A model generated the notes under the pieces. The model worked only from the letters and a program-made list of their open reading frames with translations. It did not search any database and was not told the origin of the DNA. The position numbers and the translations under genes are program-made. From Candidatus Omnitrophota bacterium (GTDB taxonomy: Bacteria > Omnitrophota > Gorgyraeia > Gygaellales > Profunditerraquicolaceae), in NCBI GenBank assembly GCA_003598025.1, contig QZKH01000006.1:44035-108034 (forward strand): a stretch of 64,000 nt of DNA. The letters run 5' to 3'. Below are positions 3,420-62,194 of the stretch, piece after piece; the stretch's first letter is position 1, and the number at the start of each line of letters is the position of its first letter.

Positions 3420-3431
3420 ATCTAATTAGAG

Positions 3432-3504
3432 GTTAGTTCATAGTTCATTGTTCATAGAATATGCCATATCCATAAACCATCAACTATGAACCATGAACTA
3501 ATAT
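3432..3504. repeat. GTTCAT/ATGAAC palindromic intergenic element (family 1), copy A.
   Basis: gttcatagttcattgttcatag...ccatatccataaaccatcaactatgaaccatgaactaatat. The core is shared almost identically with the copies at 22333-22477 and 62195-62273. Confidence 0.8.
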
Positions 3505-3541
3505 TCCTTGCCATTTCCCCATATTTATGTAAAATTTACTC

Positions 3542-4075
3542 ATGCCTGTTATTAAATTAAAACCCGTCAAAGTAAGCCGCAAATTATTTAAGCTGCTAGA
3601 ACGCCGCAAACTAATAAAGACATTCTCGCCATCTAATAAGGTGTTAAATGTCAAACCCGGGCATGGTTATGTCGATACGGTATACGCTTGCTCTGAGGAA
3701 TATGGCCCGCATAAATTGATCTGCGTTGGTTTGAATTCCAGTAAAATCAGGCTGGCTTCGCATCCGGATAAAGAAGATTTTATTCTTATTAATAATATCC
3801 GGAAGTCAAAACCTTTATATATTGTGATAGGCTTGTATAAGCATGATATCATTCAGAATAAGGTTAAATCAGGTAAATTAACCGCTAAAGATTTCATTAT
3901 GTTAAATATCAAGCACAATGATATCCATACCTGTGTTTTTACCATGCTCGAAGGGACTGTGCATTGGGAAGCTACGACTAAGGGAAGGGGCAATTCTCCG
4001 TTTTTCTTTGTAACTGAACCCGCCAGACTAAGAATGGATTTCATAGACTTGTGCGAGTATAAGGTGGAGATATAA
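3542..4075 (+). CDS. Hypothetical protein, 177 aa, AT-rich orphan ORF with no recognisable domain.
   Basis: Clean ORF, but no Shine-Dalgarno-like motif (AAGGAG/GGAGG-type) was seen upstream of the ATG. Composition is AT-rich relative to neighbours. It is bracketed on both sides by GTTCAT-type repeat elements (3432-3504 and 4089-4327). Confidence 0.45.
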   Translation: MPVIKLKPVKVSRKLFKLLERRKLIKTFSPSNKVLNVKPGHGYVDTVYACSEEYGPHKLICVGLNSSKIRLASHPDKEDFILINNIRKSKPLYIVIGLYKHDIIQNKVKSGKLTAKDFIMLNIKHNDIHTCVFTMLEGTVHWEATTKGRGNSPFFFVTEPARLRMDFIDLCEYKVEI

Positions 4076-4088
4076 TATTGGTTCATGG

Positions 4089-4327
4089 TTCATAGAATAT
4101 GGAGAGTAGCTAGTCACAAAGACACAAGGACGCAAGGACACAAAGCCACAAGAAAAGCATAGTTTAATCGTTGATTCGTTTAATAGTTTATTCGTTAATC
4201 TAGGCTTCTTCGGTTCAACGAGTCAACTAGTCAACGGGTAAACGAATAAGAAGAAATAGGTTCTTAAGATCGTTATAAAGACACCTTACGCACTACGCTA
4301 TACGCAATACGAACTGTGAACTAATAT
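4089..4327. repeat. Composite element. A family-1 arm and a family-2 CACAAGGACA repeat (4122-4166) are interrupted by a nested approx 105-nt inverted-repeat insertion (4170-4276) and then resume (4277-4327) with ...CGCTATACGCAATACGAACTGTGAACTAATAT.
   Basis: Family-2 halves match 42784-42860 and 48772-48850. The inserted segment has its own arms (ttattcgttaat ... aaacgaataag). Confidence 0.7.
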
Positions 4328-4330
4328 CCC

Positions 4331-4358
4331 TTGACACTTTAATTTTTTAAGATAATAT
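4331..4358 (+). promoter_or_regulatory. Candidate sigma70-type promoter (TTGACA-16-TAATAT) for the gltB-paralog gene, leaving a approx 165-nt leader.
   Basis: cccTTGACActttaattttttaagaTAATATcat immediately after the repeat terminus gaactaatat. Confidence 0.4.
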
Positions 4359-4523
4359 CATTATAAGTATTTGAAGTGGCCTTAAGAAGCGAAGTTGCTT
4401 TATTAGGTCTAAGACAAAGACGTCCGCAAATATAAAGGGAGGTCTTTTTTATTTTTTTGGCCTTAGTTGCATAACATATAGGCAACATCTGCCTATAATA
4501 TAGTCAGAGAAAGGAGAATAGCT

Positions 4524-6110
4524 ATGAATCTAAGGACTCCTGGCGGAAATGATGCCAGCAGAACGTTTAATCGTTCCAAAAATGTAGTGCCTTGTTCCGG
4601 ATTATGTTCAAGGTGTCTTGAGTCATGCAGGGGTAATTGCGAGGTCTTCAAGTCTTCTTTTAGAGGCAGGGAAGTTATATATCCAGGGCCTTTTGGGGAG
4701 GTAACAGCCGGAGGCGATAAGGATTACCCGGTTGATTATTCACATATTAACATACATGGCTATGCCCAGGGAGCAAAAGGTTTACCCAAGGGTGTTAGCG
4801 CAGGCCCTGATACGGCAATATTCCCGGCAGTAGATACTCAGACCGAATACGGCTGGGATAAAAAAGTAAAAATGAAGGCGCCTATTTTTACCGGCGCTTT
4901 AGGTTCAACTGAAATCGCCCGTAAAAATTGGGAGCATTTTGCGATTGGCGCTGCTATTTCAGGCGTAACAATTGTATGCGGCGAGAACGTTTGCGGGATT
5001 GACCCTAAACTGGAGTTAGACAGCAAAGGAAAGGTCGCAAGCGCCCCTGATATGGACAGGAGAATAGAAGTCTATAAGAGATTTCATGACGGCTATGGCG
5101 AAATTCTAGTGCAGATGAACGTTGAGGATACAAGGCTTGGAGTCGCTGAATATGTACACAAAAAACATAAGCTTGATACCATTGAATTAAAATGGGGGCA
5201 GGGTGCTAAGTGTATCGGCGGTGAAATAAAAGTTAAAAGCCTTGAAAGAGCGTTAGAATTAAAGAAAAGAGGTTATATAGTCACCCCTGATCCTACGATA
5301 AAGGCGAATCAGGAAGCTTTTAAAGCCGGGGCAATCAAAGAGTTTGAAAGGCATTCGCGCCTCGGATTTGTTTCAGAGGAAGCCTTTATGAAGGAAGTCA
5401 AGCGTTTAAGGGATATAGGTTTTAAGAGAGTTACATTAAAAACAGGCGCTTATTCCATGGTTGAGCTTGCCCAGGCAATAAAGTTTTCTTCGCAGGCCAA
5501 AATCGACCTTTTGACTATCGATGGAGCCCCCGGCGGCACAGGTATGAGCCCATGGAGGATGATGCAGGAGTGGGGTATACCTACATTCTATCTGCAGGCT
5601 TTAGCTTATGAATTCTGCGAGAAGCTGGCTAAAAAGAAAAAGAGAGTTCCGGATATAGCTATTGCCGGAGGATTCGCTTTAGAAGACCATGTCTTTAAGG
5701 CTATAGCAATGGGCGCTCCTTATGTAAAAGCAGTATGCATGGGAAGGGCGCTTATGATACCCGGATTCGTTGGGAAAAACATAACAGAATGGATTAAAGG
5801 TAATACTTTACCGCCCACGGTGTCTGAATTCGGAAAAACCCCCGAGGAAATCTTTGTCTGTTATGAAGAGCTCTCCGAAAAATATGGCAATGATATGAAA
5901 GATATCCCGTTAGGAGCAGTTGCCATCTACACTTTCTCGCAACGTATAAAAGTAGGTCTTCAGCAGCTTATGGCAGGCTCGCGGAACTTTAACTTGAGTA
6001 CGATCTCAAGGAAGGATTTAATGAGTTTGACAAAGGAAGCTGAAGAGGTTAGCGGCATTCCTTATGTTATGGATGCTTATAGGAAAGAAGCAGAGAAAAT
6101 ATTAGCATAA
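4524..6110 (+). CDS. Standalone glutamate-synthase-family FMN-domain protein with a Cys-rich N-terminus (probable Fe-S site).
   Basis: LTIDGAPGGTGMSP matches the GltS FMN-domain signature ([12 protein letters not shown]). N-terminal CSGLCSRCLESCRGNC Cys cluster. Strong RBS AAAGGAGAA upstream of the ATG. Confidence 0.75.
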   Translation: MNLRTPGGNDASRTFNRSKNVVPCSGLCSRCLESCRGNCEVFKSSFRGREVIYPGPFGEVTAGGDKDYPVDYSHINIHGYAQGAKGLPKGVSAGPDTAIFPAVDTQTEYGWDKKVKMKAPIFTGALGSTEIARKNWEHFAIGAAISGVTIVCGENVCGIDPKLELDSKGKVASAPDMDRRIEVYKRFHDGYGEILVQMNVEDTRLGVAEYVHKKHKLDTIELKWGQGAKCIGGEIKVKSLERALELKKRGYIVTPDPTIKANQEAFKAGAIKEFERHSRLGFVSEEAFMKEVKRLRDIGFKRVTLKTGAYSMVELAQAIKFSSQAKIDLLTIDGAPGGTGMSPWRMMQEWGIPTFYLQALAYEFCEKLAKKKKRVPDIAIAGGFALEDHVFKAIAMGAPYVKAVCMGRALMIPGFVGKNITEWIKGNTLPPTVSEFGKTPEEIFVCYEELSEKYGNDMKDIPLGAVAIYTFSQRIKVGLQQLMAGSRNFNLSTISRKDLMSLTKEAEEVSGIPYVMDAYRKEAEKILA

Positions 6111-6130
6111 TTTTCTTTGCGAAGCAAAAT

Positions 6131-6168
6131 TAAAGCGCCTTGTCTTACTGACAGGGCGCTTTAATTTT
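6131..6168 (+). terminator. Rho-independent terminator after the gltB-paralog gene.
   Basis: aaagcgccttgtcttactgacagggcgcttt followed by aatttta. 8-11 bp GC-containing stem. Confidence 0.5.
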
Positions 6169-6287
6169 ATCAAGATTTAATCGGTAAGCCAGCCGATAAA
6201 ATTACAAATCTCAACTCACAAATCACAAGCCCAAGATGTAATATTTATGGCTTTAAATTTCGATTATATGGTAGTAAAATACTTGAG

Positions 6288-8237: not shown

Positions 8238-9543
8238 AGATTTACTGGCATCTTTGCAATTGGCTAAATTATACGGGATCCAGCATAAGATATTTAGAGA
8301 TTCTGTGGATAAAGCCTATTTAAGCCTGGCTAAGGCGCTGGAAGGAAGAAGCGAACTGGTTATAGGCATTATTGGCGAAGAGCTGGCTTTTGAAAAAGAG
8401 ATACTATTTGGATTAAGCAAGGCTATAGGCCCGGCAGTGGGTTATTTAAAGAACTTGGGTATTGAAAGGATATCATTCGGGAGCAATGTTCAGAAGGATG
8501 AACTTGAGAAATTCATTGAATTTTTGGCTTCCAAAAAAGATACTGCTATAGACCAGCAGGGGTTAGATTTCGGGTCTTTAGGCATAAGGAACATTGTCAT
8601 CGGGAAACTCACCGTTCTTGGTAAAGACAAAGTTGATGAGTTAGGCATAAAGGCCGTAGATTATATGAATATATACGGTTCGGCTGCTGATATGGCGCAT
8701 AAGTCTTTTTCTTCCATGCTTGAAGGAGAGGCGCTTGATGCCTTGGCGGTAAAGTTAGCGCTTAATAATATATTAGAGAACCTGGCAGTTTATCATAATG
8801 AATTTTTCAAGATTGTAGCCTTACGCCGGCATGACCCTCAGACGCACATACACCTTATTAATGTTGCGACAATAGCAATGTACTTTGCCTCCAGGCTTGG
8901 TTTTAGCAAGGCTGATATACTGGACATCGGGATGTCCGGATTATTCCATGATATCGGCAAACTCTATATCTCCCACGGGATACTTACTAAAACAGATAAG
9001 CTTACCAATGAGGAATTTGCAAAAATAAAGAGCCATACTATATTTGGCGCAGAAATTTTATTGGAACATATAGAATCACTGGGGATACTGCCTGCAGTTG
9101 TTTCTTTTGAGCACCATCTTAAGTACGATATGACAGGTTATCCCAGAGTTAACTATTCCCGCAGGCCCCATATAGCCTCTTTGATTGTTTCTATATGCGA
9201 TGTTTATGATGCTTTATTTTCAAGAAGGACATATAAAGAGGATTATTCGCCGGAAAACGTCTATAATATAATGATTAAGGATAAAAATACTGCTTTTGAA
9301 CCGCGCCTTGTAGAGAGATTTTTTAAAATAATGGGTGTTTGGTATATAGGCTGTGTGGTTTCCCTGAGCGATGGCAGGATTGCCGTAGTCCGGGAGCAGA
9401 ATGAAGACGATATCAGGAGGCCAAAAGTAGAGGTAGTTTTCCCTAAAGATAGAAAAGAATTTATTGATCTGAAAGAGAACTCATCGCTTGAGATAAAGCG
9501 CAGCCTTAATCCCTGGACGGAAGCCAGGGATTATGTGTCTTAG
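8209..9543 (+). CDS. HD-GYP domain phosphodiesterase (c-di-GMP family) with a DUF3391-like N-terminal domain.
   Basis: HDIGK metal-binding motif and HHLKYDMTGYPR (HD-GYP signature). Overlaps the upstream ORF by 29 nt in another frame. Confidence 0.8.
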   Translation: MLEQVEKAFKDLLASLQLAKLYGIQHKIFRDSVDKAYLSLAKALEGRSELVIGIIGEELAFEKEILFGLSKAIGPAVGYLKNLGIERISFGSNVQKDELEKFIEFLASKKDTAIDQQGLDFGSLGIRNIVIGKLTVLGKDKVDELGIKAVDYMNIYGSAADMAHKSFSSMLEGEALDALAVKLALNNILENLAVYHNEFFKIVALRRHDPQTHIHLINVATIAMYFASRLGFSKADILDIGMSGLFHDIGKLYISHGILTKTDKLTNEEFAKIKSHTIFGAEILLEHIESLGILPAVVSFEHHLKYDMTGYPRVNYSRRPHIASLIVSICDVYDALFSRRTYKEDYSPENVYNIMIKDKNTAFEPRLVERFFKIMGVWYIGCVVSLSDGRIAVVREQNEDDIRRPKVEVVFPKDRKEFIDLKENSSLEIKRSLNPWTEARDYVS

Positions 9544-9659: not shown

Positions 9660-9696
9660 TATTTTAATAGTTCAATGCTGAGCTATTAATGACAAT

Positions 9697-9739
9697 GGCG
9701 TTTTGGGGCTGGAAGTGTCACCCCGATACGCCTTTTTTT
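9697..9739 (+). terminator. Intrinsic-terminator-like hairpin + U-tract inside the pyrG leader (candidate attenuator).
   Basis: ggcgttttggggctggaagtgtcaccccgatacgcc followed by ttttttt. Stem arms GGCGT..GGGG / CCCC..ACGCC. Confidence 0.5.
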
Positions 9740-9788
9740 GTTGGTTCCCCAGGGAAAATATGCTTTAATCATTCAGATTAAAATAACT

Positions 9789-27476: not shown

Positions 27477-27675
27477 CGAATTCGCTGAAAGCGAATGAGT
27501 TCCGAGGCTCCTTCTTTGAGATTCAGAGACGAGGCAGTACAAAAAATCGAGTCCCGAGAACCCGTTGTTCTTACAATTTGGTGCGAGGGGAAAATAGATA
27601 CGGCATATCGTTTATTGCAGATAGATATAATTAATGACCGATAAGCGATAAGCTATAGGCGATATGCGAGATTAC

Positions 27676-41316: not shown

Positions 41317-42309
41317 GTGATAAAGATATATTACGACAAAGACGCTGATTTAGGCATTTTAAAGGATAAGACTGTCGCAATAATCGGTTACGGTATACAG
41401 GGCAGGGGACAAGCTCTTTGCCTCCGTGATTCAGGATGTAATGTAATAGTTTCGGAATTACCAGGCACGGTTAATTATGAGCAGGCTTTAAACGACGGTT
41501 TTAAGCCCGTGCCGGTTGAAGAAGCGGCAAAACAAGCTGATATTATTCAGATCCTTACACAGGATCATGTTCAGGCTAAAGTCTACAATGAAAAAATAAA
41601 GCCCAACCTTAAAAAAGGTAAAGCATTATGTTTTTCTCACGGTTTTAATATCCATTTTAAGCAGATAAAACCGCCAAAGACAGTTGACGTATTCATGATC
41701 GCTCCTAAAGGCCCGGGCGCATTGGTAAGAAGAATGTTTGAAGAGGGCAAAGGTGTGCCTTCTCTGGTAGCTATATTTCAGGATGCAACAGGAAATGCCC
41801 TAAAAATAGCTCTGGCTTACGCAAAAGGACTGGGCGCGACCAGGGCAGGGGTAATCGAAACTACGTTTAAAGAAGAGACGGAGACTGATCTTTTTGGGGA
41901 GCAGGCGGTTCTTTGCGGCGGGGTAACAGAATTGATCAGGGCTGGTTTTGATACTTTGGTTGAAGCAGGTTATCAGCCTGAAATCGCCTATTTTGAAGTG
42001 CTCCACGAATTAAAACTTATCACTGATTTGATACAGGAGCGTGGTATAAGCGGTATGCGCAGGGGCGTTTCTAATACTGCCTGTTACGGAGACCTGACAA
42101 GAGGTAAAAGGATAATCACAGAGAAAACAAGAAAAGAGATGAAAAAGATCCTAAAAGAGATACAGAAAGGCAAGTTTGCCAAAGAGTGGATAAAAGAGAA
42201 TGAAGAAGGCAGGCCCAATTTCAACAAGCTGATTGCCGAGGGCGATAATCATCAGATTGAAAAGGTTGGTAAGCAGTTAAGAGAGATGATGCCTTGGATG
42301 AAGAAGTAA
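41317..42309 (+). CDS. ilvC: Ketol-acid reductoisomerase.
   Basis: [21 protein letters not shown] Rossmann motif and [14 protein letters not shown] start with AAAGGAGGGAG RBS. Confidence 0.9.
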
Positions 42310-42869
42310 GTCACAGGATAATGGTAAGAAGAAAATTAATAGTGCTGGTTTTGATTATTAATGTGTTGGTTTTTACGCGCGCCTATGGGCAGGATATTAG
42401 TTTTGGCGCCGAGGCTACAAAACCGGAAACCGAAAGTAATTTTTTCAAAATAAGCGAGATAAAAAGAGGTAACTTTGGCCCGGGGCAGTATTCGACCGAG
42501 GGTTTTGTTGTCAGAGTTTATACTTGCCCAGACTGTCCTGCCGGTGCTGTTTGTAAGCCGTGCATGAAGGATAATATTGTGATCTCTGAGAATAACCAGG
42601 AGCTTAAGGATTATTCCGGCTTGACTAACAGCGAGTTGATAATCTTCACTAATCATGTGACTGAATTCGAGATTGGCAGCAGTTATAAATTTTTAATAAA
42701 TATAACCAATAATAAATCTACATTAGAAAACATCAACGATATTGAGTTGGTAAGTTTTAGCGAGATAGTTGATAGAAAAGTGGGTCACAAAGACACAAGG
42801 ACACAAAGTCACAAGAACGCTATACTCAATACGCACTACGCTATACGCAATACGTTCAGTGAACAATGA
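42294..42869 (+). CDS. Hypothetical secreted/lipo-protein. The C-terminal approx 30 aa and the stop are encoded by a repeat element.
   Basis: Signal-peptide-like [20 protein letters not shown] near the N-terminus (true start possibly 42321). Tail ..[29 protein letters not shown] is a read-through of the CACAAGGACA / CGCTATACGCAATACG repeat. Confidence 0.4.
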
Positions 42870-42880
42870 ACCAAGCTGAT
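42778..42880. repeat. Family-2 + family-1 terminal element, copy G, overlapping the 3' end of ORF 42294-42869 and the leuA start region.
   Basis: gtcacaaagacacaaggacacaaagtcacaagaacgctatactcaatacgcactacgctatacgcaatacgttcagtgaacaatgaacc. Confidence 0.8.
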
Positions 42881-44386
42881 ATGGATAAAATATTAATTTT
42901 CGATACAACTTTAAGAGATGGGGAGCAGGCCCCAGGCGCATCTTTGAATGAAAAAGAAAAAATCGAGATCGCCAAGGCTTTAGCTGACTTAGGCGTGGAT
43001 ATAATCGAGGCTGGATTCCCGATCTCTTCTAAGGGTGACTTTGAGGCAGTGCGAATGGTATCCAAATCCGTCAAGGGTCCGGTTATATGTGCTTTAGCAA
43101 GGGCAATAAATAAGGATATTGATGCTGCATATCAGGCAATAAGGCCGGCTAGAAACCCGAGGATCCATGTATTCCTTGCTACTTCAAAGATCCATATGAA
43201 ATATAAGCTAAAGAAAGCTGAGGACGAGATACTACGTTTAGCTGTTAATGCTGTTAAATATGCCAGGAATTTTGTCTCCGATGTAGAATTTTCTCCTGAA
43301 GATGCTTCGCGCAGCGATAGGGAGTTTCTCTTTAAGGTGGTAGAGTCTGTTATTGCTGCTGGAGCCAAAACCGTAAATATACCAGATACTGTCGGCTATT
43401 CAGAGCCGCAGGAATTTGGCAGTCTTATAGCTGCTATCAAGGGGAATGTTCCGAATATAAATAAAGCTGTGATTTCCGTGCATTGCCATAATGACCTGGG
43501 TTTGGGCGTTGCCAATTCGCTTGAGGCGGTAAAAAACGGCGCCAGGCAGATAGAGTGTACAGTAAATGGTATTGGCGAGCGCGCCGGGAACGCCTCTATG
43601 GAAGAGGTAGTAATGGCATTGAATACCAGAAAAGATGTTTTTGGCGGCCTTGATACAAATATCAAGAAGAGCAAGATCTATAAAACTTCCCGTTTAGTAA
43701 GCAAACTGACGGGTTTTGTTATTGCCCCAAATAAAGCAATTGTCGGAGCAAACGCCTTCAGGCACGAATCCGGCATTCATCAGGACGGTGTTTTAAAAGA
43801 ACGCTCTACTTACGAGATAATAAGGCCGCAGGATGTAGGTTTTAGCGGGGTAGGTTTGGTGTTAGGAAAACATTCCGGCAGACACGCTTTCAGCGAGCGT
43901 CTTAATTCTTTGGGCTTTCATTTGTCAGGCCAGCAGCTTGAAAAAGCATTCAACCGTTTTAAGCAGATCGCTGATAAGAAGAAGAATATCTTTGACGATG
44001 ATCTCATGGCCATAGTTGAGGATGAGATCAGTGTAAGCAGGCCTACTTGGACCCTTGAAGGATTTGAAGTTAATTCAGGGACAAACATAAATCCAAAGGC
44101 AGCAGTCAGGCTGAAGAAAAAAGGAAAGATATATTCCGGAATTTCAAACGGCGATGGGCCGGTTGACGCATGTTTTAAGGCTATTGATAAAATATCTAAG
44201 ATAAAAATAAGGCTTTCCGACTACAGGCTTGAAGCCGTCACCTCGGGTAAAGACGCTTTGGGAGAAGTTACCTTAAAAATGGTCGCCAGAGGAAGGACCG
44301 CATCCGGCAGGGGTTCCAGCACTGACATTATCGAGGCTTCTGTAAGGGCCTATATAGATGCCCTTAATAAAATAGAGTCGAGATGA
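42881..44386 (+). CDS. leuA: 2-isopropylmalate synthase.
   Basis: MDKILIFDTTLRDGEQAPG is canonical. HCHNDLGLGVANSLEA motif. The ATG at 42881 is preferred over the in-frame ATG at 42866, which lies inside the repeat. Confidence 0.85.
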   Translation: MDKILIFDTTLRDGEQAPGASLNEKEKIEIAKALADLGVDIIEAGFPISSKGDFEAVRMVSKSVKGPVICALARAINKDIDAAYQAIRPARNPRIHVFLATSKIHMKYKLKKAEDEILRLAVNAVKYARNFVSDVEFSPEDASRSDREFLFKVVESVIAAGAKTVNIPDTVGYSEPQEFGSLIAAIKGNVPNINKAVISVHCHNDLGLGVANSLEAVKNGARQIECTVNGIGERAGNASMEEVVMALNTRKDVFGGLDTNIKKSKIYKTSRLVSKLTGFVIAPNKAIVGANAFRHESGIHQDGVLKERSTYEIIRPQDVGFSGVGLVLGKHSGRHAFSERLNSLGFHLSGQQLEKAFNRFKQIADKKKNIFDDDLMAIVEDEISVSRPTWTLEGFEVNSGTNINPKAAVRLKKKGKIYSGISNGDGPVDACFKAIDKISKIKIRLSDYRLEAVTSGKDALGEVTLKMVARGRTASGRGSSTDIIEASVRAYIDALNKIESR

Positions 44387-47976: not shown

Positions 47977-48696
47977 ATGCCGATATTAAACGGCTCCGCC
48001 TATTATATATCCAAAGAGATTGGTAAGGCCATAGGGGATTACGGGCTCATCTCCGATGGGGATAAAATCGCCGTTGCCGTTTCAGGAGGCAAAGACAGTA
48101 TTACATTGCTTAATTTATTGAATGAGCGCAGGAAATTCGCCCCGGTTAACTATGAAATCATGGCAATTCACGTGGATTTAGGCTATCCCCGTTCCGTCTC
48201 GAATAAACTAAAGAAATATTTTAATAAGATAGGCGTCAATTACCATATAGAAAAGAACGATGTACTGAAGAAAACCGGGCGTTCGGATATCTCTTGTTTC
48301 TGGTGTTCCTGGAACAGGAGAAAGTCATTGTTTGAATCGGCAGCCAGGCTTGGGTTTTCAAAAGTGGCCCTGGGACATCATATGGATGACATAATTGAAA
48401 CGATTTTGATGAACATGTTTTTTCAGGGCGAGATATCAGCTATGCTCCCAAAGCAGGAATTATTCGGAGGCAAGATAACGTTAATACGCCCGCTTGCTTA
48501 TGTGCAGGAATGCATGATCAAAAAATATACAAAAGAATTTTCTGTTGAATATGATAAATGCATTTGCCCGAATTCTGCAATTTCCAACCGCAGGCGTATG
48601 CGTAGGATAATAAGCCAGCTTAAAAAGGCTTGCCCGGATATAAAAAAGAACATATTCAGGAGCGTAAGGAGAGTCAAGGCGGATTATTTGCTTTAA
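47977..48696 (+). CDS. ttcA: PP-loop ATPase of the TtcA family (tRNA 2-thiolation).
   Basis: IAVAVSGGKDSITLL (SGGxDS PP-loop). CFWCSWNRRKSL...ALGHHMDDIIETILMNMFFQG matches the TtcA CxxC / GHH.DD block. Confidence 0.75.
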   Translation: MPILNGSAYYISKEIGKAIGDYGLISDGDKIAVAVSGGKDSITLLNLLNERRKFAPVNYEIMAIHVDLGYPRSVSNKLKKYFNKIGVNYHIEKNDVLKKTGRSDISCFWCSWNRRKSLFESAARLGFSKVALGHHMDDIIETILMNMFFQGEISAMLPKQELFGGKITLIRPLAYVQECMIKKYTKEFSVEYDKCICPNSAISNRRRMRRIISQLKKACPDIKKNIFRSVRRVKADYLL

Positions 48697-48726
48697 ACGG
48701 GTAGAGCAGAGTGGTATAATTTTATT

Positions 48727-48872
48727 GGTTCACAGTGCACAGTTCATGGTTCATAGAAATAGATAAAGTAGGTAGCCACAAGGACACACGACACAGGCTC
48801 ATAAGAACACCATACTCAATACGCACCACGCTATACGCAATACGTTCAGTGAACTGTGAACATTGAACTAGC
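48727..48872. repeat. Family-1 arm + family-2 + family-1 terminal element, copy H, upstream of rmuC.
   Basis: ggttcacagtgcacagttcatggttcatagaaatag...gccacaaggacacacgacacaggctcataagaacaccatactcaatacgcaccacgctatacgcaatacgttcagtgaactgtgaacattgaac. Confidence 0.8.
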
Positions 48873-48891
48873 AAATATTTGGAGAGATAAT

Positions 48892-49815
48892 ATGGTTTGG
48901 CTGTTAACAGGTTTATTTTTAGTATTGGCATCCATAATAATAGCGATAATGCTTAAGATTTCATCGCAGGTAAACGAAAGCCTCAAGACTATCAATAACT
49001 CGCTGTTTGAGGCAAACAAGGTGATCGGGCAGAATTTAGGCAGCACTGCTTCTATATTCGGAAATGTCCAGGAATCCTTAGGCCAGTTAAAAGAGAGCAA
49101 TGAGAGGATATATGAAATAAGCAAGGATATCTCAAGCCTGCAGGAATTGCTCCGGGCACCAAAGTTCAGGGGGCAAATCGGGGAGGCAATGCTTGAGAAC
49201 CTGCTTTCTCAAGTCTTGCCCAAGGCTGCGTTTCAAGTGCAGTATAGGTTTAAGTCTCAGGAAGCAGTTGATGCTGTCATCAACCTGGGGGGAAAGCTTG
49301 TCCCTATTGATGCCAAGTTCAGCCTTGAGAATTTCCAGAGGTATATTGAGGCAGAAGAAGAGCAGTTGAAAAACAGCCTTAATAAGAAATTTATCCAGGA
49401 CGTAAAAAACAGAATAGATGAAATAGCATCGAAGTATATCTTACCTCATGAAAATACATATGATTTTGCATTTATGTATATCCCTGCAGAGAACGTTTAT
49501 TATGAGATAATAATAAAGGAAGATTTATTTTCGTATTGCATTTCTAAGAAAGTTATACCCGTATCTCCGAATACTTTTTATGCCTACCTGCAGATAATTT
49601 GTTCCGGTTTAAGGGGTTTTATGATCGAGGATAATGCCAAGGCTATCCTGAAGAATCTAAGCTCAATAAGCGTTGAATTGGATAAATTCAAAGAAGATTT
49701 CGAATTATTGGGAAAACATCTTTTTAACGCTAATAGTAAATATTCGGATTCGCAGAATAAGCTGGCGAGGTTCTCCGATAGGATAGCGAATATCCAAACC
49801 AAAGACTCTAAATAG
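48892..49815 (+). CDS. rmuC: DNA recombination protein RmuC family.
   Basis: N-terminal TM helix, coiled-coil region and RmuC core (RAPKFRGQIGEAMLENLL...PIDAKF...PNTFYAYLQII). ATG at 48892 with GGAGAG RBS preferred over the GTG at 48856 inside the repeat. Confidence 0.7.
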   Translation: MVWLLTGLFLVLASIIIAIMLKISSQVNESLKTINNSLFEANKVIGQNLGSTASIFGNVQESLGQLKESNERIYEISKDISSLQELLRAPKFRGQIGEAMLENLLSQVLPKAAFQVQYRFKSQEAVDAVINLGGKLVPIDAKFSLENFQRYIEAEEEQLKNSLNKKFIQDVKNRIDEIASKYILPHENTYDFAFMYIPAENVYYEIIIKEDLFSYCISKKVIPVSPNTFYAYLQIICSGLRGFMIEDNAKAILKNLSSISVELDKFKEDFELLGKHLFNANSKYSDSQNKLARFSDRIANIQTKDSK

Positions 49816-61984: not shown

Positions 61985-62110
61985 TAGCGTAGAAACGCAT
62001 ACCGAGCTATCCTTTAAGCACGGGTGTAGCGTAGAAACGCATACGTGTAGTAAACATGCACTGTGCCTTCCTGTGGGCACAGGTGCCGAGCTATCCTTTA
62101 AGCACGGGTG
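61985..62110. repeat. Pair of interleaved direct repeats upstream of ppiD (- strand): an 18-nt repeat (tagcgtagaaacgcatac, x2) and a 26-nt repeat (ccgagctatcctttaagcacgggtgt, x2), with a central hairpin (cactgtgcc..gggcacagg).
   Basis: Exact repeated strings at 61985-62002 / 62026-62043 and 62003-62028 / 62085-62110. Confidence 0.7.
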
Positions 62111-62194
62111 TTAATGAACTAAATAATTAGTTTAATAATTATATTCCAAAACAAGAGGAAAGGGAAGGAATAAAAAGTAGGCTTAAGCAGGAGT

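Follow-up and report, generated by a model that had tools for sequence, protein, structure and literature searches.

Within a 64,000-nt stretch of the genome of a Candidatus Omnitrophota bacterium (contig QZKH01000006.1, positions 44,035 to 108,034; hereafter the window, whose own numbering is used throughout), an A/C-rich module of about 70 nt recurs at three loci, each time inside a second, hairpin-forming repeat, and in one of its copies the module is itself split by a further hairpin. The question raised by this locus is whether one miniature mobile element has been inserted into another, as the initial annotation proposed when it inferred recent or ongoing mobility, or whether the nested parts have travelled together as one unit. 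Small intergenic repeats are almost unstudied in Omnitrophota and in other uncultivated phyla. The window has a GC content of about 41%, nearly every gene lies on the + strand, and the gene content is of a housekeeping nature (gltB/gltD-like genes, pyrG, carAB, an ilv-leu operon, ribosomal protein genes and others), the named closest homologues of its proteins being from Omnitrophota. Searches of the neighbourhood covered the window and 14.7 kb of flanking sequence from the source contig, 78.7 kb in total.

We call the outer hairpin repeat family 1 and the A/C-rich module family 2. The reading that we favour, and to which we give roughly even chances, is that family 2 travels as a passenger within the loop of a composite family-1 array hairpin, a non-autonomous repeat resembling repetitive extragenic palindromic (REP) sequences, miniature inverted-repeat transposable elements (MITEs) and short tandemly repeated repetitive (STRR) sequences, and that this composite arose once and was copied to at least three sites.

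Anatomy of the composite

The window has 10 intergenic sites at which family 1 forms a hairpin. Each arm is made of 3-5 tandem heptamers with the consensus YRGTTCA, in which positions 1 and 2 toggle between Y and R and position 3 is G in 83 of 83 units, the 7-nt phase having been set to the one that best matches GTTCA. Complementarity between the arms is about 80%, and the predicted folds lie between -19 and -34 kcal/mol (z -3.3 to -8.5). The ends of the element (TTAGTTCA...TGAACTAA) are palindromic throughout, and a possible TA duplication would be indistinguishable from the arm.

Family 2 is common to the loci 4078-4327, 42755-42874 and 48725-48871 (copies 1, 2 and 3). It consists of four to five CACAAGGA-type octamers (CACAARGA) followed by 3.5 to five TACGCNN heptamers, and in all three copies it is bracketed by family-1 arms, the left arm of copy 2 being a degenerate remnant. 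That the three loci share a module, that it holds CACAAAG-type sub-repeats and that it always continues into a family-1 terminus had been noticed in the initial annotation, and all of this agrees with our results; the boundaries are here refined and the family-1 left arms, which had been missed, are added. The parts of the three copies are as follows (MFE, minimum free energy; ORF, open reading frame).

Copy 1, 4078-4097, + strand: family-1 left arm TTGGTTCATGGTTCATAGAA, YRGTTCA heptamers, 2 nt past the stop codon of ORF 3542-4075; pairs with 4312-4327 in both the MFE and the centroid fold
Copy 1, 4115-4154, + strand: left half of family 2, five octamers, CACAAAGA CACAAGGA CGCAAGGA CACAAAGC CACAAGAA
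Copy 1, 4287-4311, + strand: right half of family 2, TACGCAC TACGCTA TACGCAA TACG
Copy 1, 4312-4327, + strand: family-1 right arm AACTGTGAACTAATAT, with a promoter-like TTGACA-16-TAATAT 3 nt downstream, at 4331-4358
Copy 2, 42755-42780, + strand: degenerate remnant, as read from its sequence, of the family-1 left arm, TTTTAGCGAGATAGTTGATAGAAAAG, inside ORF 42294-42869
Copy 2, 42786-42854, + strand: family-2 module, octamers 42786-42817 and heptamers 42818-42854, translated as the C-terminal tail of a 191-aa ORF
Copy 2, 42855-42874, + strand: family-1 right arm TTCAGTGAACAATGAACCAA, which gives the TGA stop of this ORF and the ATG of the called leuA start
Copy 3, 48725-48758, + strand: family-1 left arm, with a promoter-like TTTAAA-17-TGgTATAAT upstream, at 48692-48720
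Copy 3, 48777-48844, + strand: family-2 module, octamer-like units 48777-48807 and heptamers 48808-48844
Copy 3, 48845-48871, + strand: family-1 right arm TTCAGTGAACTGTGAACATTGAACTAG, 21 nt upstream of the rmuC ATG (48893)

The predicted folds have the family-1 arms paired with each other and family 2 as the loop. Family 2 alone (42% A, 31% C, 15% G, 12% T) is unstructured (MFE -13.3, z=+0.17), and no inverse arrays of its units were found on either strand of the window, so that a hairpin formed by family 2, or by its two halves pairing with each other, was rejected. Its two ends are different arrays, with neither terminal inverted repeats nor a target duplication, and in this it departs from what defines a MITE. 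It is because family 2 has no ends and no self-complementarity of its own that we read it as a passenger. In copy 1 there are three levels of nesting: family-1 arms enclose the family-2 arrays, and these enclose an inner octamer hairpin.

Common descent of the three copies

The three copies descend from one composite. Identity between copies 2 and 3 is 88% over 72 nt, and the 35-nt junction between the TACGC array and family 1 in copy 1 is 91% identical to that of copy 2 and 89% identical to that of copy 3. A profile built from copies 2 and 3 only recovers the right half of copy 1 with E=2e-9 and the left half with E=0.004-0.013, and finds no other site in the 78.7 kb. The octamer and heptamer patterns are matched 8 and 14 times, against shuffled expectations of 0.17 and 3.7, respectively. 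Furthermore, copies 2 and 3 have their unit variants, among them a degenerate CTCAATA unit, in identical order, which points to one template and not to independent slippage.

All parts of the composites are short tandem units: Tandem Repeats Finder (TRF) reports periods 7 and 8 with 3.4-5.4 copies throughout, and higher-order periods of 14 and 21 nt as well. The numbers of units vary, copy 1 having one more octamer and one or two fewer heptamers, and in the inner block of copy 1 the repeat unit of the left arm, TCGTTNAT, is similar to the neighbouring ATCGTTATA, and this ATCGTTATA is aligned with the first ACGCTATA unit in copy 2. These features would suit a local origin without transposition, in which the arrays grew by slippage, the palindromes formed by intrastrand template switching where hairpins were already present and the similarity between copies was kept up or spread through gene conversion between family-1 hairpins; so would the prevalence of heptanucleotides, which Mrazek (2007), in the part relayed by PMC4679880, gives as the commonest class of long simple sequence repeats in many bacteria and attributes to polymerase slippage. 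We nevertheless consider such an origin unlikely. Slippage cannot give the same 70-nt order of variants at three unlinked loci, 38 and 6 kb apart, and some copy-and-paste step is consequently still needed, for which the family-1 arms (20-35 nt, about 80% identical) are short as substrates of conversion. Moreover, two observations described below, an ORF extended by 33 aa and a site that is empty in a relative, look like the arrival of whole blocks.

The inner block of copy 1

Between the two halves of family 2, copy 1 carries an extra block that runs from about 4155/4161 to 4272/4286. It had been described as an inverted repeat of about 105 nt; the split and the inverted repeat are both real, but by alignment the block measures 112-130 nt. 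It comprises a hairpin and is flanked by a diverged direct repeat.

4160-4250, + strand: inner hairpin, left arm 4160-4200 (TCGTTNAT)x5, loop 4201-4213, right arm 4214-4250 (NNGTCAAC)x4
4136-4161, + strand: left member of a diverged direct repeat of about 26 nt, aligning to family-2 profile positions ~15-40
4252-4277, + strand: right member of the same direct repeat, aligning to the same family-2 profile positions, ~15-40

The hairpin arms are 74-87% complementary and fold with -28.2 kcal/mol (z=-3.0). No second copy of the block was found in the 78.7 kb or in the fetched loci, except for viral loci that had been chosen by the same pattern. The two flanking repeats are about 46% identical to each other, against about 90% identity of the remainder of copy 1 to its paralogues, and this difference weakens their reading as a target duplication; they could be an old target duplication or, equally, the sequence through which a palindrome could be deleted. 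As copies 2 and 3 are sisters, the comparison has two lineages and no outgroup. The block may have been inserted in copy 1 or lost in the common ancestor of the other two copies, and the two cannot be distinguished.

A comparable arrangement was seen in another Omnitrophota metagenome-assembled genome (MAG), MAG207, whose dispersed composite has an AAGGYTN left array, an inner hairpin with a G/T-rich and a C/A-rich arm, and a TACGCNN right array. Near-identical copies lie at locus L006, 6040-6330 (- strand), L010, 4830-5090, L007, 6880-7110, and L011, 2150-2400 (- strand). The inner hairpin is present in every copy of this composite, and deletion from copies 2 and 3 is for that reason just as plausible as insertion.

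These results bear on the proposal that the families are separate miniature transposable elements, the inner block having entered family 2 and family 2 having entered family 1, mobilised in trans, recently or still, by transposases encoded elsewhere in the genome. The nested architecture seen in the initial annotation is upheld, the inner block does have inverted-repeat arms, and the direct repeat around it might be an old target duplication, except that 26 nt is atypical for one and that the identity of its members is so low. Independent NNGTCAAC octamer hairpins occur in the viral contigs L092 and L111, but in the 78.7 kb the inner block is a singleton, and the MAG207 composites always hold their inner hairpin. 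Family 1 is present or absent between relatives, as a mobile repeat would be; family 2, however, has no terminal inverted repeats or structure (z=+0.17) and never occurs free of family-1 arms, so that it does not qualify as a separate miniature element. Nor did we find signs of recent or ongoing mobility, since the copies are 88-91% identical, the left arm of copy 2 has decayed (ATAGTTGATAGAA compared with ATAGTTCATAGAA), and the 78.7 kb encode neither a transposase nor a RAYT, the initial annotation having suggested a search for a transposase that matches either family. On balance, we regard separate transposable elements as improbable.

Acquisition at the sites

Comparison with related sequences indicates that the repeats were acquired at their sites and not inherited there. 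The 191-aa ORF (42294-42869) runs through copy 2, and about 33 of its C-terminal residues are encoded by the element, whereas five homologues of the protein stop within a few residues of ...ELVSF and have no such tail. Family 2 as a coding sequence was rejected, as an ORF is found at copy 2 only and the tail is missing from the homologues. The 191-aa protein looks secreted, and the repeat supplies both its last ~33 residues and its stop codon. On the other side of copy 2, the start called for leuA, at 42866, falls within the family-1 arm, and it is at 42881 that the conserved N-terminus of LeuA (MDKILIFDTTLRDGEQ) begins; both gene calls have probably been distorted by the repeat.

At a family-1 site, the gap between the HD-domain gene and pyrG, the relative L014 (91% identity in the gltB-like protein) has a TAG stop codon followed directly by a -35 box, and the same gap in the window contains an 88-nt family-1 hairpin. 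In every relative examined the gltD-like gene is next to the gltB-like gene; in the window three things lie between them, a family-1 hairpin, an orphan gene of 177 aa and copy 1 of the composite. The orphan's homologues (37-54% identity) come from other lineages and other contexts, and the family-1 right end with its -35 box is duplicated on either side of the gene with 81% identity. The orphan gene could have been brought in, or fixed, together with the repeats. Located at 3542-4075 and bracketed by family-1 elements (region 3420-4360), it has no Pfam match; a promoter-like TTGCCA-16-TAAAAT ends 6 nt ahead of its ATG, and its mRNA may be leaderless. No orthologous empty site was found among the relatives for copy 1, where the upstream synteny differs, or for copy 2, where the context of the homologue is not syntenic. 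Relatives have no elements at orthologous sites upstream of the same genes.

In close relatives (88-92% protein identity) the same kind of position between stop codon and promoter is taken by heptamer hairpins of a CCAAAT/ATTTGG type (L014, 11770-11860 and 16190-16320; L015/L016, 540-565). This other flavour of unit implies that the repeat vocabulary turns over fast between related genomes.

Position relative to genes

Family 1 starts within about 30 nt past the upstream stop codon at 8 of its 10 sites. A -35-like box lies 3-14 nt downstream of its right end at five sites, and at five sites it abuts the next ribosome-binding site (RBS) or start codon. These positions, by analogy, fit REP-like insulators or mRNA-end structures. 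Several known identities were tried and rejected. Intrinsic termination is not supported: the arms are A/T-rich and followed by CTAATAT, not by a T run, and a terminator scan gave 0 sites at the composite loci, while canonical terminators exist elsewhere in the window, for instance at 6125-6170. Neither is a known RNA family or riboswitch, as Rfam 15 covariance models gave no match with E<=1 at 4050-4540 or 48680-48900; at the gathering threshold the only matches in the window are three tRNAs. A CsrA sponge (ACAAGGA motifs) was dismissed because there are 1-2 GGA per copy, not conserved between copies, and HutP-like NAG-N4 arrays because the conserved part of the unit is GTTCA and not a NAG triplet.

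A further alternative is that the arrays are working binding platforms that regulate the next downstream gene, either as DNA sites for ribbon-helix-helix proteins or as an RNA in which the A/C-rich single-stranded loop of family 2 would be bound by Rho, Hfq or a CsrA-like factor. Ribbon-helix-helix proteins are known to occupy operator arrays, the omega repressor of plasmid pSM19035 on 7-bp heptads and MetJ on 8-bp metboxes, and the arrays of the window would fit such a use in their contiguous 7- or 8-bp units, conserved cores and closeness to -35-like boxes. The units combine a 5-nt conserved core with 2-3 free positions, and variation within them is position-specific, in YRGTTCA as described above and likewise in CAC-N-AAG-R and TACGC-NN, also in other phyla and in viral contigs, the same cores being found in Omnitrophota, Phycisphaerae, Pirellulales, Chloroflexota and IMG/VR contigs. 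The -35-like boxes beside the five family-1 right ends would point in the same direction, but promoter-like matches are no commoner than in shuffled sequence; similarly, family 2 is A/C-rich and unstructured and all three copies are oriented like their downstream gene, but for three of three the chance probability of a shared orientation is 0.25. Tandem heptamers near promoters and start codons are reported to affect expression in Nostoc (bioRxiv 10.1101/2022.06.06.494920), and a similar role has been proposed for the TAACTGA repeats of Beggiatoaceae, whose distribution across phyla is puzzling (PMC4679880). In our case, however, one arm of copy 2 has decayed and the copy falls within an ORF, the analysis yielded no candidate for the binding protein, and the absence of elements at the orthologous sites of relatives means that the genes do not need them. 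We therefore assign a low probability to working binding platforms.

Occurrence of the modules in other genomes and viruses

A pattern for the junction between family 2 and family 1 had 0 matches in JGI metagenome contigs, and a pattern for the whole architecture (octamer array, 5-35 nt, TACGC array), confirmed to match the window, had 0 matches in JGI metagenome contigs and in IMG/VR. Family 2 as a whole thus looks lineage-specific. Its two halves occur separately. The 20-mer ACYACGCTATACGCAATACG had 11 genome matches, none with the octamer half, and 0 viral matches. TACGCNN arrays with this 20-mer are present in two other Omnitrophota MAGs, in Phycisphaerae, Pirellulales and Chloroflexota MAGs and in one labelled Bacteroidetes. 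Each of these arrays lies between genes, several form hairpins with inverse GCGTA arrays, and at L008 a further heptamer hairpin is nested inside the TACGCNN hairpin. TACGCNN arrays occur also in 32 viral contigs. CACAAAGA octamer arrays with an inverse CTTTGTG arm were found in about a dozen IMG/VR contigs, typically just past stop codons, and these contigs also hold GTTCA-core heptamer arrays; the NNGTCAAC octamer hairpins of L092 and L111 have been mentioned above. From its sequence, family 2 looks like a chimera of a CACAAAG-type and a TACGC-type hairpin arm.

Several of the viral contigs (L026, L027, L033, L039, L041, L044, L092/L111 and L056) are rich in array hairpins with the cores CACNAAGR, GTTCA/TGAAC, GAACATC and NNGTCAAC. 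The hairpins usually lie between a stop codon and the next RBS, as at L041, 7057-7131 and 8158-8217, and L056 has direct ACGAGTCA arrays immediately upstream of start codons at 170-205 and 8296-8325. In the viral CACAAAG hairpins the two arms differ systematically at the same two unit positions.

This distribution suggests a bolder proposal, which we find very doubtful: that YRGTTCA, CACNAAGR, TACGCNN and NNGTCAAC form a small recurrent vocabulary of array hairpins shared by Omnitrophota, Planctomycetota, Chloroflexota and viruses, read by conserved sequence-specific proteins in the manner of operators, centromeres or RNA platforms, in which case the composites would be combinatorial cis-regulatory sites or sites of virus-host interaction.

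Other features of the window

A conserved leader (4331-4523) lies upstream of the gene of the FMN-binding glutamate-synthase family, and is found also at L017/L018, 9850-9990, and L019, 9640-9990. Its layout is a CTTGACA promoter, a GACAAAGRCGTCC...GGNGRYCTTTTTT terminator-like hairpin (4414-4455) and a TGCCTA-AAT-TAGGCA palindrome (4468-4506). It has no Rfam match, and may be an attenuator, a riboswitch-like leader or a small RNA tied to nitrogen metabolism. At pyrG (CTP synthase) a terminator-like hairpin with a T run lies between promoter and start, both in the window (9683-9740) and in L014 (10110-10160). A leader attenuator of pyrG is known in Bacillus, and by analogy this hairpin looks like one of that kind.

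Two further arrays are solitary: CGATAAG-type heptamers (x4.4) at 27639-27669, directly upstream of a tRNA-Leu (27676), and a CA-rich ACAAATC/CACAAG array at 6199-6235, downstream of a canonical terminator. Finally, at 61985-62115, in the divergent region upstream of a family-1 element and the hisG promoter, two different short segments, AGCGTAGAAACGCATAC and GCCGAGCTATCCTTTAAGCACGGGTGT, are each duplicated in tandem order.

Relation to known repeat families

We regard the repeat system of the window as a variant, specific to its lineage, of small palindromic repeats that other bacteria are known to have. With the REP, BIME and REPIN sequences of Proteobacteria (Bertels and Rainey 2011, PMC3116915) it shares short, non-coding imperfect palindromes in many strictly intergenic copies, often past stop codons, that form hairpin doublets, are non-autonomous and can be nested or mosaic. 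Family 1 and the whole composite form such hairpins, whereas family 2 alone is not palindromic. Unlike REP and REPIN sequences, in which there is one palindromic unit of 20-40 nt, the arms here are tandem arrays of 7-8-nt units, without a GTAG-type head and, in the 78.7 kb, without a gene for RAYT, the IS200/IS605-like Y1 transposase whose gene REP sequences typically flank, and the loop carries family 2 as a long non-palindromic passenger.

The STRR or heptamer repeats of heterocystous cyanobacteria (PMC2670836; for Nostoc, bioRxiv 10.1101/2022.06.06.494920) are likewise intergenic tandem heptamers near promoters and start codons, with several unit families per genome. The arrays of the window are head-to-tail and intergenic, with units inside the 5-11-nt range of STRR and of long simple sequence repeats (TRF periods 7 and 8), but they belong to another phylum and have other units, they are arranged in inverted pairs and in nested composites copied as blocks, and they do not show the variation in place that is typical of STRR, since copies 2 and 3 have the same order of variants and 88% identity over 72 nt. 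The TAACTGA repeats of Beggiatoaceae, Cyanobacteria and Bacteroidetes (MacGregor 2015, PMC4679880) are also intergenic arrays, of 2-6 units near start codons, with one unit in phylogenetically distant groups and no evident mechanism of transfer; in contrast to the present arrays they have another unit and are almost all direct (169 direct sets, 1 indirect), and no composites or nesting are described in that paper.

The family resemblance to MITEs with nested insertions, such as Correia/NEMIS and Nezha, lies in being non-autonomous, hairpin-forming and intergenic, in the nesting of one element in another, in the capacity to extend or alter ORFs and in the proximity to promoters; the difference is that family 2 has no defined terminal inverted repeats or target-site duplication, that the arms are tandem arrays and that no related autonomous insertion sequence lies in the 78.7 kb. 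In Nostoc punctiforme, the SDR repeats treated by Elhai and colleagues in 2008 are said to be 21-27 nt long, to be nested in other repeats and to have been interpreted as tiny mobile DNA without a transposase of its own; the modules described here are two-array modules of 70 nt and are likewise nested. A literature search with the unit sequences as strings found no papers.

Proposed origin of the composite

Under the passenger reading, the composite, laid out as family-1 arm, spacer, CACAARGA octamers, TACGCNN heptamers and family-1 arm, would have been born once and then copied to at least three intergenic sites. The copying could have been carried out by the machinery that moves family 1, or by gene conversion between family-1 hairpins through the homology of their arms. 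The extra block of copy 1 would be a third array hairpin, either inserted there or ancestral and deleted towards copies 2 and 3. As to function, the family-1 arms would form long imperfect hairpins, in DNA or in RNA, at gene boundaries, and any role of theirs would be that of an insulator like REP or of a structure at mRNA ends; family 2 is most likely no working part but sequence that is tolerated in the loop. The MAG207 composite provides a parallel for composites dispersed as units.

Several results weigh against this reading. All three available copies of family 2 lie within 78.7 kb of one contig, and among the Pfam hits of all genes in that region there is no transposase, integrase, RAYT or Y1_Tnp; with no mobilising gene there, no copying machinery is identified. 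No clear target-site duplication was found at the elements. Of the 10 family-1 sites, two fall in regions of divergent promoters, and a terminator would be pointless there. Among the mismatches between the arms, changes compatible with G-U pairing on the sense strand are not in excess (13 against 12, with 27 others), and with no sense-strand bias of this kind covariation lends no support to a role at the RNA level or to selection on the stems as RNA. Finally, the recurrence of the unit cores in distant phyla and in viral contigs is not explained by a purely selfish, lineage-specific repeat.

Conclusions

For the annotation of these genomes, ORF tails and start codons that fall within such repeats should be distrusted. 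The repeats reshape genes, having added 33 residues and a stop codon to one ORF and supplied the called start codon of its neighbour, and others of them lie exactly between stop codons and promoters. The recurrence of the unit cores across phyla and viral contigs poses the testable question of whether it reflects a shared recognition machinery or horizontal spread. If the arrangement were confirmed genome-wide, it would represent a repeat system made wholly of 7-8-nt tandem units in nested hairpins, whose modules can be swapped or travel as cargo, and would extend the picture drawn from REP, MITE and STRR repeats.

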